Assembly (NCBI GenBank): GCA_965222075.1
Contig: OZ244937.1
Location: 2,176,001-2,240,000, forward strand
Source of the DNA: Candidatus Latescibacterota bacterium
GTDB lineage: Bacteria; Latescibacterota; UBA2968; GCA-2709665
Length of the DNA stretch: 64,000 nucleotides
Direction: 5' to 3'
Position 1 is the first letter of the stretch; each line of letters starts with the position of its first letter. The notes below the pieces were generated by a model, which was given only the letters and a program-made list of their open reading frames with translations, did not search any database and was not told where the DNA came from. The translations under genes were made by a program, and so were the position numbers. This document shows, piece after piece, positions 2,776-42,273 of the stretch.

Positions 2776-3540
2776 ATGAAGGTCTTAGCATATACCACCA
2801 ACCCCTTCGGCGGGGTGCTTTCTACGCCTGATGGACTCCCGGAAGACCCGCAGGTGTTTCAGCAACAGCTCAATTACTCTGTAAAAACCTGGAAAACCGA
2901 AGGATTTCAGGTGGGATGGGTGGAAATCCCCATCGCCAGGTCGCAGTTAATCCCCATCGCCGTGGACGCGGGATTTGCCTTCCACCACAGCGGTAGGGAC
3001 TACCTGATGCTCACCCTCCGCCTGGTGGAAGGCGCCTTTATTCCTCCCTTTGCCACACATTACATCGGCGCCGGAGGCGCGGTGATAAACGATCGGAACG
3101 AACTCCTGGTCGTCTGTGAAAAACACCGGCGCTCCAAAACCCCCTACTACAAACTCCCGGGAGGGGCCCTGCGGCCGGGGGAGCACCTGGAAGACTGTAT
3201 CGTTCGGGAAATCCTGGAAGAAACAGGCGTCCGGACGCGTTTCGACGCCCTGGTCTGTTTCCGCCACTGGCACGGGTACCGGTATGACAAATCCGACATC
3301 TACTTTGTCTGTCGCCTGACCCCCTTGAGCCACGAACTCACCGTGCAGGAGGAGGAAATCGAGGAATGCCACTGGATGCCCGTACAGGACTACATGGATT
3401 CCGAATACGTCAGCATCTTTAACAAACAGATCGTGGAGGCCGCGCTGAACAGCGCCGGTGTGTCGCCCACCTTTATCGAAGGATATTCCGATCCTGAAAA
3501 ACACGAAATCTTCATGCCCCGTGACATAGATCACAAATAA
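2776..3540 (+). CDS. NUDIX hydrolase (NUDT6/AtNUDT-like with N-terminal pre-Nudix domain)
   Basis: Nudix box PGG...GE.....REILEETG; GFAFHH and ATHYIGAGG; AAGGAGG RBS. Confidence 0.9.
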   Translation: MKVLAYTTNPFGGVLSTPDGLPEDPQVFQQQLNYSVKTWKTEGFQVGWVEIPIARSQLIPIAVDAGFAFHHSGRDYLMLTLRLVEGAFIPPFATHYIGAGGAVINDRNELLVVCEKHRRSKTPYYKLPGGALRPGEHLEDCIVREILEETGVRTRFDALVCFRHWHGYRYDKSDIYFVCRLTPLSHELTVQEEEIEECHWMPVQDYMDSEYVSIFNKQIVEAALNSAGVSPTFIEGYSDPEKHEIFMPRDIDHK

Positions 3541-38401: not shown

Positions 38402-39004
38402 TTACCCGCTCTCTTCACCCAGCACGTATCGCACAAAACGCCGAATGCTCACATTTTCACCGCTCTTGGCCGCAAGCTCCGTCTCCAGGTCTTTGACCGT
38501 CTTATCGAGATCCTTGACAAAGGGCTGCTCTAACAGACAGACCTCCTGGTAGTACTTTTCGAGACGCCCTTCCACAATCCGGTCGACCACGTTCTCCGGT
38601 TTCCCTTCCCCAAGGGCCTGCTCCCGGTAAATCCCGCGCTCCCTTTCCACGACCACAGGGTCCAGATCCTCTCGGCTAACCGCTAAGGGAGCATTCGCGG
38701 CAATATGCATGGCCACATCCCTGGCAAAGGCCTGAAACTCATCGGTTCGGGCCACAAAATCGGTCTCGCTGTTGACCTCGACCATCACCCCAAGCTTGTT
38801 TCCGGTATGGATGTAAGAGACAATAGCCCCCTCTCTGGCCGCCCGCCCCATACGGTCTTCCGCCTTGGCGATACCGCGCTTTCGAAGAACCTCGATCGCC
38901 CTCTCCATATCCCCGTCGGTTTCCTCAAGCGCACGTTTGCAATCCATCATCCCAACGTTGGTTTTTGCGCGCAACTCCTGAACCTGTTTTGCAGAAATTG
39001 CCAT
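38402..39004 (-). CDS. tsf: elongation factor Ts (short form)
   Basis: LR..T..GMMDCK.AL, EVNSETDFVA, GEN..IRRF. Confidence 0.97.
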   Translation of the reverse strand: MAISAKQVQELRAKTNVGMMDCKRALEETDGDMERAIEVLRKRGIAKAEDRMGRAAREGAIVSYIHTGNKLGVMVEVNSETDFVARTDEFQAFARDVAMHIAANAPLAVSREDLDPVVVERERGIYREQALGEGKPENVVDRIVEGRLEKYYQEVCLLEQPFVKDLDKTVKDLETELAAKSGENVSIRRFVRYVLGEESG

Positions 39005-39052
39005 AATCTCGTTCTCCCTGCAAGCATAAGCGCCGCGAACAATAATTGGTCT

Positions 39053-39829
39053 CTACTGGGTAATCTCTGTAATCTCAGGTCCCGATACGACCCCGGCTTC
39101 CGCCCTGCCCCCCTCTTCTGCAGGGGTCTGCGCCGAATGCTCTTTTCGGACTTTCTGACCTTCGATCACGGCATCGGCCATAAGCCGGGTAATCAGGGCA
39201 ATAGACCGGATGGCATCGTCGTTGCCTGGAATAGGATAGTCGATCTCGTCGGGATTACAGTTGGTATCTACAATGGACACAATGGGGATCTCCAGACGGT
39301 TGGCCTCTCCCACGGCAATCTTCTCCTTCTTGGTATCCACAATAACGACCAGCCCCGGCAGGCGCCCCATATTTCGGATTCCACTCAGAGACTTCTCAAG
39401 CTTACCCCGTTCTCTGTCCAGTTGCAAAACCTCTTTCTTCGTCAGGCGCTCGTAAGAACCGTCTGTACCCATCTTATCTAAGGCTTCAAGACGCCGAATA
39501 CTCTGACGAATGGTTTGAAAATTGGTCAGCATCCCGCCCAACCAGCGCTCGGTAACATGGAACATGTCGCATCGCTCAGCTTCACGGAGAACCACATCTT
39601 GGGACTGCTTTTTGGTGCCGACAAAAAGAACCGGTTTGCCGTTTTCGACAGCTTCACGCACGACCTGATAGGCCTGTTCGATATGTCTCAGTGTTTTTTG
39701 AAGATCGATAATATAAATGCCGTTGCGTTCTGTAAAAATATACTTCTTCATTTTCGGGTCCCACCTGCGCGTCTGGTGCCCGAAATGCACCCCGGCTTCA
39801 AGGAGCTCCTTCATCGTAACAACAGCCAT
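39053..39829 (-). CDS. rpsB: 30S ribosomal protein S2
   Basis: [28 protein letters not shown]. Confidence 0.98.
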
Positions 39830-39851
39830 TGATACCTCCTGAACATATACT

Positions 39852-39928
39852 GGGTTTATCCTCTGTACCCGTCATCTCGCAGCCCCGTCAGAGATCGACA
39901 CCCAAGCCGCGATCGGGATACATGTGAA
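39852..39928 (-). promoter_or_regulatory. rpsB 5' leader (t44 / S2-autoregulatory-like RNA)
   Basis: CACATGTATCC...GGGTGTC...GGGTACAGAGGATAAACCC, the pattern I recall for rpsB leaders. Confidence 0.65.
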
Positions 39929-39995
39929 TTTGGCACACCCCTCAGGGATGCCTGTAAAGCCATGCAGCCTGTCAGGTTAGACGCTATGAACAGGC

Positions 39996-40388
39996 TTACC
40001 GCTTGGAGAACTGGAAGCGTTTGCGTGCACCGGGCTGCCCCGGCTTTTTACGCTCTACCTCTCGGGCATCGCGCGTTAGCATACCGGCCGCTCGGAGCGG
40101 TTTTCTCAGATCTTCGTCCATAGCCAGAAGACTCCGGGCAATGCCCAGGCGGATCGCGCCCGCCTGACCGCTTAAGCCTCCCCCTTTGGCGCGGGCTACG
40201 ATGTCGTACCTCCCCATCGACTCCGTGATCTGGAGAGGGCGTTCCACCAGCAGCACCAGCGTCTCTCGCTTCAGATAATCCAGGACCGGTCTTCCGTTAA
40301 CCGTAATCTGGCCGGAACCGGAGAAAACCTGAACGTTCGCTGTCGCGTTTTTGCGTCGACCTGTAGCAGAAACAAGTGGTTCGGGCAA
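39996..40388 (-). CDS. rpsI: 30S ribosomal protein S9
   Basis: TGRRK, GGG.SGQAGAIR, VERKKPG...ARKRFQFSKR. Confidence 0.98.
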   Translation of the reverse strand: MPEPLVSATGRRKNATANVQVFSGSGQITVNGRPVLDYLKRETLVLLVERPLQITESMGRYDIVARAKGGGLSGQAGAIRLGIARSLLAMDEDLRKPLRAAGMLTRDAREVERKKPGQPGARKRFQFSKR

Positions 40389-40432
40389 AAAGTCACCTCC
40401 TTTCGCCAGCCATTGGAAAGATCCGAATCCGA

Positions 40433-40867
40433 TCAGGCAAAATCGATCGGCTCGGGACTCTGGCTTTGATGCGGATGCTCGGCCCCCACATAGATCCGGA
40501 CCTTCTTCATCATCTTGCGGCCCAGCCTGTTGCGCGGAAGCATGCCTTTAATAGCGTGTTCTAATACAAACTCGGGCTGGGTCTCAAGTAACCTTTTGAG
40601 GCTTTTGGTCTTGAGCCCCCCCGGATATCCGCTGTAGCTCGTGTAAACCTTATCCTCGGGTTTGTTGTTGCCCGTAACACGGATTTTACCGGCGTTGACG
40701 ATCACCACGTGATCGCCGGTATCGATATGGGGGGTATAAATCGGTTTGTGTTTCCCTCTGAGTATCCTGGCCACTTCGCTTGCAAACCGCCCCAGCACCT
40801 TCCCTTTTGCATCGGCCACGTACCATTTTCGTTCCACGTCGCTCGCTTTGGCGCTCATCGTCTTCAT
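40433..40867 (-). CDS. rplM: 50S ribosomal protein L13
   Basis: LGR.AS, GKHKP.YTPH.DTGD, GMLP.N.LGR. Confidence 0.98.
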
Positions 40868-40952
40868 ATCCAGACGGCGTCATCCATGGGAAATGCCGCC
40901 CTTATGTCACCTCCTCTCTCACTCAGCTGTAAATTTAGGTGTTAAGCTTCAA

Positions 40953-40980
40953 AAGATATATATCAACATTTTTTTGTCAA
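40953..40980 (-). promoter_or_regulatory. rplM operon promoter
   Basis: TTGACA-16 bp-TATCTT in an AT-rich stretch. Confidence 0.6.
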
Positions 40981-41014
40981 GGAATAATCCGGCCGGAACA
41001 GCGCCTCTGGAGAC

Positions 41015-41069
41015 AAAAAAGCGCCACACGACGGGAGACCGGTTGCCCGATCACATCTCCGTGCGGCGC
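41015..41069 (-). terminator. intrinsic terminator
   Basis: GCGCCGCACG...CGTGTGGCGC stem with a GCAA-capped apical stem, followed by T6. Confidence 0.75.
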
Positions 41070-41213
41070 AATACGTTCGACAGCCTCCATCTCACGGAAC
41101 CTCAAACTGCTGATGGCCCGCCGAGATGACGAATTGCGTGTCGTTCGGTGACTGTTTAGATTCGCCAGGTGCGCTACCGATCGAGATGTAGATCCCGCTC
41201 CTGGCGAGCGCAT

Positions 41214-41249
41214 CTAACTACAGCCACCTCCACTGGTCGTATCGCTCAT
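41214..41249 (-). CDS. 11-aa micro-ORF MSDTTSGGGCS
   Basis: ATG directly after an exceptionally long SD; TAG stop inside hairpin 1. Confidence 0.4.
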   Translation of the reverse strand: MSDTTSGGGCS

Positions 41250-41277
41250 TAGACCACCTCCTTTCTGTGTAATCGAA

Positions 41278-41306
41278 AATATAGGGTATCCCCAGGAGGA
41301 AGTCAA
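41278..41306 (-). promoter_or_regulatory. sigma70-like promoter of the small RNA
   Basis: TTGACT-17 bp-TATATT. Confidence 0.7.
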
Positions 41307-41376
41307 TCGCTTTTTCTCCATCGCCCGGCACCCCCCACCCCTCCCGGCACCGCCAAAGTTCAAGTCGGAACTTTTT

Positions 41377-42273
41377 TTATGTCCGTGGATCCAGCACATC
41401 CCTCAGCCCGTCGCCCAAGAGGTTAAACGCCAGAACGGTCAGAAAGATGGCAAGGCCGGGAAAGGTCAGCACCCAGGGGGCGCTCAGAATCAACTCCCGT
41501 CCCTCGTTCAGCATGGCGCCCCACTCCGGGGTTGGCGGCTGCGCTCCCAGGCCCAGAAAGCTGAGACCTGCGGCATCTAAGATAGCGGTGGCCAGTCCAA
41601 GCGTCGACTGGACAATCAGGGGGGGCAGACAGTTGGGAAGCACAGCGAACACGAGAACCCGCAGGTCTCCCGCCCCAAGGGCCCGAACCGCCTGCACATA
41701 GTCCTTCTCCCGCACCGAAAGGGCCGAGGCACGCACCAGCCGGGCATACTGGGGCACCGCCACAATCCCCACGGCCAGCATGGCATTGTCCAGGCCTGGG
41801 CCCAGAACGGCCACAATCCCGATTGCCAAGAGGATGCTTGGAAAGGCCAGCATCAGATCCATAGCCCGCATCAGCGCCTGATCCAGCAGGCCGCCCCAGT
41901 ACCCCCCCGTAAGCCCGATGGCCGTCCCCAGAATCAGGGCGATCAGCACCGCGACCACTCCGATCCGCAACGAGATCCGGGACCCGAAAATCACCCGGCT
42001 CAGAATATCCCGGCCAAAATCGTCCGTGCCGAAGGGGTGTGTCGGAGACGGTGGAGAAAGCCGGCTGTAGAGATCCTGTTCCAGCGGATCATAGGGCGCA
42101 GCCAGCGGCGCGGCAAGGGCCAGCAGCAAGAACCCCAGCAGCAGCACACCGCCCGCCACAGCAAGGCGGTTTACCCCCAGCCGCCGCCACAGCATCCCCC
42201 CCCACCCTTCCGACTGGCCTATTTGTGAAACATCAGTCGTTGGTACTATCATATACAGGCTTCTCCACACCAC
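41377..42273 (-). CDS. dppC: peptide/nickel ABC transporter permease (DppC-like)
   Basis: HPFGTDDFGRD, AAGLSFLGLG, PEWG, NLLGDGLRD; start uncertain. Confidence 0.9.
   Translation of the reverse strand: MVWRSLYMIVPTTDVSQIGQSEGWGGMLWRRLGVNRLAVAGGVLLLGFLLLALAAPLAAPYDPLEQDLYSRLSPPSPTHPFGTDDFGRDILSRVIFGSRISLRIGVVAVLIALILGTAIGLTGGYWGGLLDQALMRAMDLMLAFPSILLAIGIVAVLGPGLDNAMLAVGIVAVPQYARLVRASALSVREKDYVQAVRALGAGDLRVLVFAVLPNCLPPLIVQSTLGLATAILDAAGLSFLGLGAQPPTPEWGAMLNEGRELILSAPWVLTFPGLAIFLTVLAFNLLGDGLRDVLDPRT

Follow-up and report, generated by a model that had tools for sequence, protein, structure and literature searches.

A 64,000-nucleotide (nt) window of the genome of a Candidatus Latescibacterota bacterium (assembly GCA_965222075.1, contig OZ244937.1, positions 2,176,001 to 2,240,000 of the forward strand) carries, at 41306-41015 on the minus strand, an element that is most likely a free-standing gene for a predicted small RNA (sRNA) of ~256 nt, extending from 41270 to ~41015; positions are those of this window, the whole stretch analysed. 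We find that the element is a divergent relative of the Ms_IGR-5 family (Rfam RF02471), and not a member by Rfam's own threshold. We regard its identity as a stand-alone Ms_IGR-5-type RNA gene as highly probable, and give roughly even odds (about 0.5) to the full explanation, mechanism included, in which a divergent RNA gene of the Ms_IGR-5 superfamily acts by engaging the ribosome directly. What is new is a non-actinobacterial variant of a catalogued RNA family. A sequence-only reading of the same DNA had proposed an undescribed system, a description that gives way to a sub-threshold RF02471 match (23.5 bits) and a continuum of scores that place the element with the catalogued family.

The Rfam search itself has two sides. 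No family is matched at its gathering score anywhere in the 64-kb window, in line with the sequence-only reading, and permissive thresholds recover RF02471 over 41126-41270 (23.5 bits, E = 0.0025, cut-off 45), the only such match in the genome. Aligned end to end, the blocks of the RF02471 model (ACACA, AGGAGGUGGUC, GAGGUGGCUG, UAG, CUGGCGAAU and CAGUCACC) are the blocks conserved here. We then scanned one genome per species with a cross-phylum pattern, AGGAGGTGGTC followed by a 12-40-nt gap and GAGGTGRCTG, which returns at least 120 loci. Those listed are mostly from Actinomycetota, joined by Terriglobales, Blastocatellia, Heliobacteriaceae, Syntrophobacter, Planctomycetota, Zixibacteriota, Eisenbacteria and Candidatus Latescibacterota; two loci with the last label (L070 and L100) have the form found in the element's own order, with OppC or L13 adjoining. 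RF02471 scores taken on a sample of the pattern-scan loci are 176.5 bits in Mycobacterium, 98.5 in Micromonospora, 85 in Kineococcus, 83.5 in Blastococcus, 49.6 in Blastocatellia, 48.8 in Acidimicrobiales, 42.5 in Zixibacteriota, 27-41 in own-order copies, 32.9 in Syntrophobacter, 26.2 in Planctomycetota, 23.4 in Heliobacteriaceae and 21.1 in Terriglobales. It is because these graded scores run continuously up to true members that the element can be tied to the catalogued family, and we read the series as one superfamily, of which the Rfam model would cover the actinobacterial branch.

Likeness to Ms_IGR-5 extends along the RNA. Both have a 5' ACAC, an extended Shine-Dalgarno (SD) sequence, AGGAGGUGGUC, a start codon inside a hairpin loop, a frame of 11-12 codons with UAG just 3' of GAGGUGGCUG, and a long-range helix joining GGUGGCUG to CAGUCACC, with GGCGAAU 5' of the latter strand and a terminator thereafter, and both are probably stand-alone genes. 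The element differs in a reading frame offset by one base, hence in its peptide, in a 3' half with an additional covarying hairpin and a large terminator hairpin, in its place between opp genes and rplM (as found in its own order), and in its non-actinobacterial host, the own-order form being labelled Candidatus Latescibacterota whereas Rfam gives the family an actinobacterial scope. According to the excerpts available of the respective papers, Ms_IGR-5 is M. smegmatis IGR-5, or ncMSMEG15794c (PMC10454040), is among the Rfam matches in S. lividans with RNA-seq validation given as 'yes' (PMC8079986), and appears among the matched sRNA transcription units of S. avermitilis (PMC8780764). None of the excerpts of these three papers or of PMC4974804 gives a function for it, and the literature searched, which did not extend to bioRxiv supplements, holds no paper on the function or cross-phylum spread of Ms_IGR-5-type RNA. 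As a candidate homologue in M. tuberculosis, ncRv0810c (reported as needed for optimal growth; 905078-905167, PMC5241402 supplement file 5) was set aside, as nothing links it to the family, and the search for such a homologue found no ncRv10812, ncRv0812 or ncRv10813 entry.

Comparison across phyla reveals a common core; the cross-phylum counts given here and below refer to copies among the matches listed, 134 distinct copies for pairing and frame and 130 for the length and stop of the open reading frame (ORF). The core consists of a 5' stem (P0), a super-SD (SD1) in an internal loop, a start codon in the loop of a second stem (P1, GGUC/GAC), and a short frame that closes just past a second SD-like box, GAGGUGG (SD2), which is paired to the anti-SD-like CAGUCACC in P2. 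In P0, bases -8 to -5 relative to AGGAGG pair in register with the four just ahead of AGGUGRCUG in 85.1% of cells, versus 15.9-55.8% with a slid partner, and several Watson-Crick types occur per position (e.g., AT 67, CG 30, GC 16, TA 3), a real covariation. In P2, GGUGRCUG pairs with a downstream CAG(U/C/A)CACC-type strand at a median distance of 74 nt (range 22-239), the complement to P2a being 8/8 in 104/134 copies and 7/8 in 29.

The reading frame is part of this core. Counted from an NTG start close to SD1 through to the conserved stop, it is open in 134/134 copies, against 21/134 and 0/134 for control frames, and its length is 11-12 codons in 104/130 copies (11 in 24, 12 in 80), with 13 codons in 10, 14 in 11, 15 in 2 and 17 in 3. 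The stop falls 6-9 nt past GAGGTGG in all 130 (at 8 nt in 107) and is TAG in 114, TAA in 11 and TGA in 5; TAG closes just 22.6% of 3,966 long frames in the element's own genome. Because the two groups differ by one base in the register of the frame against GAGGUGG, the peptide tail reads ..TSGGGC(S/R) in the own order and ..EVAxx elsewhere. These comparisons indicate that translation is selected and the peptide is not; it is translation of the frame that seems to matter. A shorter, more divergent variant is present in family f8 of the same phylum (L166 = G065, L167 = G057, ~position 1500), with its own TTGACA promoter, a P0 of GCAC/GUGC, CAGGUGACUG replacing GAGGUGGCUG, and a frame of 14 codons (MEGCSAGDCWGFVL or LDSYSCAGDCWGCDA) closed by TAA or TGA, followed by AAAUCCAAACAG..CACC and a terminator.

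SD1 is where the case for ribosome engagement starts. The 16S gene of this genome ends in ...GGCTGGATCACCTCCTTTCTAGGG, and the 17-mer AGAAAGGAGGTGGTCTA (41266..41250, minus strand, 15 nt conserved) forms 15 Watson-Crick and 2 G-U pairs with UGGAUCACCUCCUUUCU, which confirms the 17-nt complement with two wobbles claimed from the sequence. The predicted duplex energy (duplexfold) is -27.5 kcal/mol, compared with -29.7 for a perfect complement. A search of the whole 5.36-Mb genome, both strands included, for the 15-nt complement of the free tail finds one exact copy, in the rDNA itself; the sole site at 1 mismatch (a G-U) is this element, and 21 sites have 2 mismatches. SD1 is the closest 16S-tail complement in the genome apart from the rRNA gene, and GAAAGGAGGTGGTC is unchanged in 31/31 aligned own-order copies. 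In the cross-phylum copies, the positions 5' of AGGAGG that the search pattern leaves free are G in 134/134 copies, A/G in 134/134, A/G in 134/134 and A/G in 123/134; opposite the U residues of the tail only U-pairing bases occur, the signature expected of pairing with an invariant partner. Comparative evidence of this kind argues that ribosome pairing of SD1 is under selection. Elsewhere in the genome, beyond the window, a 4-kb stretch of the minus strand holds three near-identical sites, TTGAGAAAGGAGGTTGTGGTCCGATGA.. (G000:C1 1028856, 1029771 and 1032514), which look like a small tandem gene family sharing a long SD-like leader.

The remaining anatomy of the locus, all on the minus strand, is that of a putative complete transcription unit, and here the sequence-only reading, which had a stand-alone structured RNA with its own promoter and terminator and an 11-codon frame right after the 16S complement, holds in each of its sequence features, promoter and terminator being conserved. 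The sigma-70-type promoter (score 10/12) consists of TTGACT (41306-41301), a 17-nt spacer and TATATT (41283-41278); its -10 hexamer (TATATT, TATTTT or TATGTT) recurs in 32/32 own-order loci and an in-register TTGACT in 22/32. The predicted 5' end of the RNA, 7 nt past the -10 hexamer at 41270, is the A of ACAC, which is constant across 31/31 aligned copies and coincides with position 1 of the Rfam Ms_IGR-5 model. SD1 sits 5 nt from this end, within a 5' domain (41231..41269) in which it occupies the internal loop between P0 (CAC, 41269-41267, with GTG, 41233-41231; predicted fold and cross-phylum covariation) and P1 (TGGTC, 41256-41252, with GACCA, 41238-41234), the latter enclosing the start codon. 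The mini-ORF, MSDTTSGGGCS, spans 41249..41214 with its TAG stop at 41216-41214, its codons being ATG (41249) AGC GAT ACG ACC AGT GGA GGT GGC TGT AGT TAG. Within it lies SD2, GGAGGTGG (41224..41231), whose GGAGG core ends 7 nt ahead of the last sense codon and whose duplex with the 16S tail is worth -15.0 kcal/mol; in this copy the stop is 7 nt past GAGGTGG.

Hairpin 1 (P2; 41228..41147), in which 93-97% of cells are paired, brings GGTGGCTGT (41228-41220) together with the anti-SD-like ACAGTCACC (41155-41147), itself preceded by CTGGCGAAT; TTAGAT/ATCTAA and TCGCCAGG/CCTGGCGA pair further in, and the apical loop holds an invariant CATCTC. Hairpin 2 (41143..41078), specific to the own order, and the intrinsic terminator, a long hairpin plus T6 (41069..41015), both show compensatory changes. 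The fold is more stable than shuffled sequences (z = -3.08, with 1/200 shuffles equally stable). A hypothetical pseudoknot would join the hairpin-1 loop (CAUCUC) to GAGAUG, which lies in the terminator's 5' arm; both strands are nearly invariant and their few changes, one wobble and two breaks, give no covariation. Two longer ORFs, of 78 aa (40977-41213) and 61 aa (41214-41399), we judge spurious, their frames being broken by indels in relatives.

Within its order, the element is widely kept. It is single-copy in its own genome, and blastn recovers it in 40/41 genomes (own included) of two families, the sole miss being G012 (92% complete). A covariance model of the 5' domain built here, R1, which is narrow (effective sequence number 1.01), matches 17/18 genomes of family f1 and 30/30 of f2, with weak matches in f4 and f8; in f3, a sister family of the same class, this narrow model finds the element in none of 64 genomes (0/64), and three pattern matches among these 64, with GATC and long gaps, look like chance. 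Invariant in 31 aligned copies are ACAC, GAAAGGAGGTGGTC, ATG, GAC(C/T)AGTGGAGGTG, CTGT and TAG. RNAalifold predicts 57 pairs, 18 of them with compensatory changes, mostly in hairpin 2 (e.g., CG 17 / AU 14, AU 19 / GC 10, CG 22 / UA 9) and the terminator (AU 14 / GC 14; CG 17 / AU 10 / GU 4). In the 5' domain, 96% of cells pair and both-side changes affect just 2/32 pairs; it is too conserved within the order to covary, and we used the cross-phylum pair counts for this domain for that reason. Covariation is present in hairpin 2 and the terminator within the order and in P0 across phyla, but hardly at all in the 5' domain within the order.

RNA-library contigs are consistent with expression of the element. 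They are 100% identical to it over 41045-41228 (X14, X16 and X17, one study) and 41065-41270 (X15, whose RNA status is guessed), and the X15 contig begins exactly at the predicted +1 (41270). At their other ends, the contigs of X14 and X15 (two studies) both stop at 41065, X16 at 41057 and X17 at 41045, from which we claim no 3' end; all three P6 contigs end at 41228, maybe an assembly branch point in a conserved stretch. No RNA-library contig lies over 40954-41044 or 41271-41450 or joins the element to oppC or rplM, gaps which in themselves prove nothing. Word depth in X14 and X16 is 29-52 for the element contigs versus 4-5 on the rplM side, a contig depth that cannot rank genes. As a candidate stand-alone sRNA, the element has a conserved promoter and terminator and is covered over 41045-41270 by contigs that do not by themselves show ends, strand or template type. 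X14, X16 and X17 are metatranscriptomic libraries labelled sponge metagenome.

For the way such an RNA might work, we favour a mechanism driven by the ribosome, a proposal we hold tentatively and at slightly less than an even chance. In the folded RNA, SD1, complementary to 15-17 nt of the free tail, would be held in the P0/P1 internal loop, with the start codon in the P1 loop. A 30S subunit may dock on SD1, for which complementarity and conservation are in evidence and binding is our proposal. The GGUC that forms the 3' part of SD1 and otherwise belongs to P1 would then have to open for initiation, because the full duplex reaches within 1-2 nt of the AUG. Translation of the 11 codons would unwind P0, P1 and the 5' strand of P2, and, once UAG occupies the A site, SD2 (GGAGGUGG) would stand 7 nt 5' of the P-site codon, just as far as SD1 stands from AUG. 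SD2 could then pair with the ribosomal anti-SD, displacing the intramolecular anti-SD-like ACAGUCACC. The RNA would thereby toggle between a closed and a ribosome-opened state, with the peptide as a by-product, and its output could be the holding of a ribosome, or a report on translation or termination capacity. In energy-model folds, the terminator hairpin remains intact when a ribosome footprint at the start or at the stop is forced single-stranded, and no anti-terminator forms; because these constrained folds leave the terminator untouched, they suggest a ribosome-operated switch or holder rather than attenuator logic. Among the functions proposed from the sequence, a ribosome-sensing RNA comes closest to this, but the micro-peptide assigned to it is not conserved between clades.

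The same facts can be arranged differently. A 30S decoy or sponge, in which the RNA would titrate 30S subunits or the anti-SD tail through SD1 and translation of the frame would be incidental, draws on the length and predicted strength of the SD1 complement (15-17 nt, -27.5 kcal/mol, the best such site in the genome), on the restriction to purines opposite tail U residues across phyla, and on the Rfam consensus of an unrelated-looking alphaproteobacterial sRNA, CC2171, that likewise opens with GAAAGGAGGUGAUCC. Yet a pure decoy has no need of a start, an open frame and a stop, all of which are kept in 134/134 copies versus 21 and 0 for the control frames, and stoichiometric titration would require very high copy numbers. 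We consider such a decoy unlikely. Of the functions put forward by the sequence-only reading, a 30S decoy, if untranslated, and a 16S-maturation factor both fit poorly with that same retention of start, frame and stop.

A base-pairing sRNA, in which SD1 and the mini-ORF would be just a 5' stabiliser of the STAB-SD kind and the seed would lie elsewhere, for example in CAGUCACC or in the GCGAAU loop, strikes us as similarly improbable. SD1 does lie close to the predicted 5' end (5 nt away), strands of the CAGUCACC type, together with a G-N-N-AAT motif, do recur across phyla (104/134 copies), and the family was first recovered by foreign-Hfq pull-down, as the title of the original paper has it. 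Against this, the candidate seed would be buried in P2 unless a ribosome opens P2, and both P2 strands are more invariant across phyla than a seed needs to be.

The genes around the element bear on a further alternative, a cis-acting leader or attenuator of rplM-rpsI, for example in L13 or S9 autoregulation. In order on the minus strand, the neighbours are a family-5 solute-binding protein, OppB-like and OppC-like permeases, the element, L13, S9, S2 and EF-Ts. L13 lies downstream in 29/32 own-order loci, 370-590 nt 3' of the element start, and OppC upstream in 23/32; the loci that lack L13 are L025 (contig end), L029 and L030. Outside the order the surroundings change. Of 78 upstream ORFs tested, 37 have Pfam matches, to more than 20 unrelated families (e.g., class-IV aminotransferase at six mycobacterial loci, GCV_T, PMSR, Na+/H+ antiporter and ABC ATPases), and, downstream, L13 is found only at the own-order-type L100 when the longest ORF of each of 78 long-flanked loci is considered. 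The position upstream of a ribosomal operon reported by the sequence-only reading is in this way correct for the own order, but neighbours outside the order are unrelated; adjacency to rplM-rpsI is inherited synteny within the order, not regulation.

A leader of rplM-rpsI we accordingly consider very improbable: L13 follows within the order and the terminator stands between the element and rplM, as a leader or attenuator would have it, but the downstream neighbours are diverse elsewhere, two own-order genera (L029 and L030) have no downstream L13, a second promoter-like site lies past the terminator, and the terminator is indifferent to ribosome position in the constrained folds. Neither an L13 leader nor any other Rfam leader matches the window at gathering score, or the 40850-41450 interval at E <= 10. 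The second site, TTGACA-16-TATCTT, right past the element terminator, could serve as rplM's own promoter (promoter-like site and rplM SD at 40953-40980 and 40868-40931, minus strand). The rplM-rpsI-rpsB-tsf genes (38402-40867, minus strand) stand directly 3' of the opp-type peptide ABC transporter, an order unlike truA-rplM-rpsI, the usual context of rplM in Bacillus. The notion that MSDTTSGGGCS is itself the functional product, a micropeptide, is just as hard to credit, for all its strong SD, its conserved frame and a TSGGGC(S/R) that is invariant in the order bar a G-to-D change in 3 copies, as other clades read this RNA core in another frame (..EVAxx), MSDTTSGGGCS has no signal peptide or hydrophobic segment, and the fact that only 1/7 third-codon positions of codons 5-11 varies within the order points to a constraint on the RNA. 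Over these codons 3/21 nucleotide columns vary, while L13 proteins are 72-79% identical, and codons 2 and 4 change freely.

Several observations weigh against direct ribosome engagement by an Ms_IGR-5-type RNA, or limit what its evidence can carry. The invariance of both boxes, and partly the spacing from SD2 to the stop, arise by construction, because the search pattern fixes AGGAGGTGGTC and GAGGTGRCTG, and the at least 120 cross-phylum loci picked in this way are themselves interrelated. In f8 copies, CAGGUGAC stands as the second box and the frame runs on for ~25 nt to a TAA or TGA stop, so that neither a stop 8 nt after SD2 nor UAG is universal. GGUC and GGUGGCUG are also stem strands, and their conservation could for that reason be purely structural. 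As to SD1, relatives keep 15/17 positions and the final two (TA) vary, their 16S partners presumably belonging to helix 45; if G-U pairs and helix-45 bases are counted, a run of 17 is attained at six sites in the genome, the element included, and a run of 18 at one; and the nearby SD of rplM, GAGAGAGGAGGTGAC, also pairs with the 16S tail over 13 bp (-22.9 kcal/mol), so long SDs are not rare in this genome. In the minimum-free-energy fold only about half of SD1 (0.47) is unpaired, partly through pairing with the U-tail. Library contigs are no proof of transcription, as they leave ends and strand unshown and DNA can contaminate. One own-order genome, G038 (L030; reported as ~100% complete, maybe rounded), has its sole detected copy split in hairpin 1 by a ~1.4-kb insertion that encodes a Mutator-family transposase (Pfam PF00872, E = 3e-61), leaving a 5' piece at 2955-3015 and a 3' piece at 1491-1543 of L030 1491-3015; because this only detected copy is split by the transposon, the RNA is dispensable at least in G038. 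Evidence from ribosomes, in the excerpt available of PMC4974804, is confined to ribosomal reads of Ms_IGR-5 homologues in M. abscessus and M. smegmatis.

Other known systems share parts of this design. CC2171 of Caulobacter (Rfam RF01867) is likewise a stand-alone sRNA, of ~160 nt, with a tail complement near its 5' end, and its consensus opens with GAAAGGAGGUGAUCC and then GUG, a perfect complement of the 16S tail; its expression is confirmed by Northern blot in M. extorquens, according to the part available of bioRxiv 10.1101/2022.01.24.477521. RF01867 has no match in 40850-41450 at E <= 10, and its model gives weak matches of 22-23 bits, versus a cut-off of 75, on two other-phylum loci (L099 and L065). 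At present CC2171 and the element appear to share a design only, and both may belong to a wider class of super-SD sRNAs. RF02471 and RF01867 are not in one Rfam clan. A search of named control genomes with RF02471 gives sub-cut-off matches in Caulobacter vibrioides and Thermus thermophilus.

Two cis-acting sites offer partial parallels. In STAB-SD of cryIIIA, an SD-like sequence near the 5' end binds 30S without serving a normal gene, and the bound ribosome protects the RNA against 5'-end-dependent decay; the element shares the position of its SD-like sequence, and differs in that a start codon and a conserved frame follow SD1. At the frameshift site of prfB, an internal SD lies 3 nt from the P site ahead of a UGA stop, and the downstream frame continues. 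The element resembles it in placing an SD-like box at a set distance upstream of a stop codon read by one release factor, and is unlike it in using UAG (RF1) instead of UGA, in a P-site spacing of 7 versus 3 nt, and in having no continuing downstream frame.

At its widest, the argument would unite Ms_IGR-5-type RNAs, and perhaps CC2171-type RNAs too, in a single ancient class of 'ribosome-gauging' RNAs that spans phyla, a speculation to which we attach little probability. Such an RNA would capture 30S with a complement of the full 16S tail, have it translate a frame of about one ribosome footprint (11-12 codons), and clamp it through SD2 at an RF1-only stop, so that the terminating ribosome and the next initiating one touch, and the state of the RNA, or the ribosomes parked on it, might report or buffer RF1 capacity or the supply of free ribosomes. 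If this were true, it would be the RF1 counterpart of the prfB autoregulatory site. Tractable carriers of such RNAs, in which the interaction would be open to direct test, include M. smegmatis and Streptomyces and, for the look-alike CC2171, Caulobacter. Rfam lists Ms_IGR-5 as an actinobacterial sRNA, and the same core design is kept across distant phyla beside unrelated genes, a conservation that suggests a basic interaction with the translation machinery.

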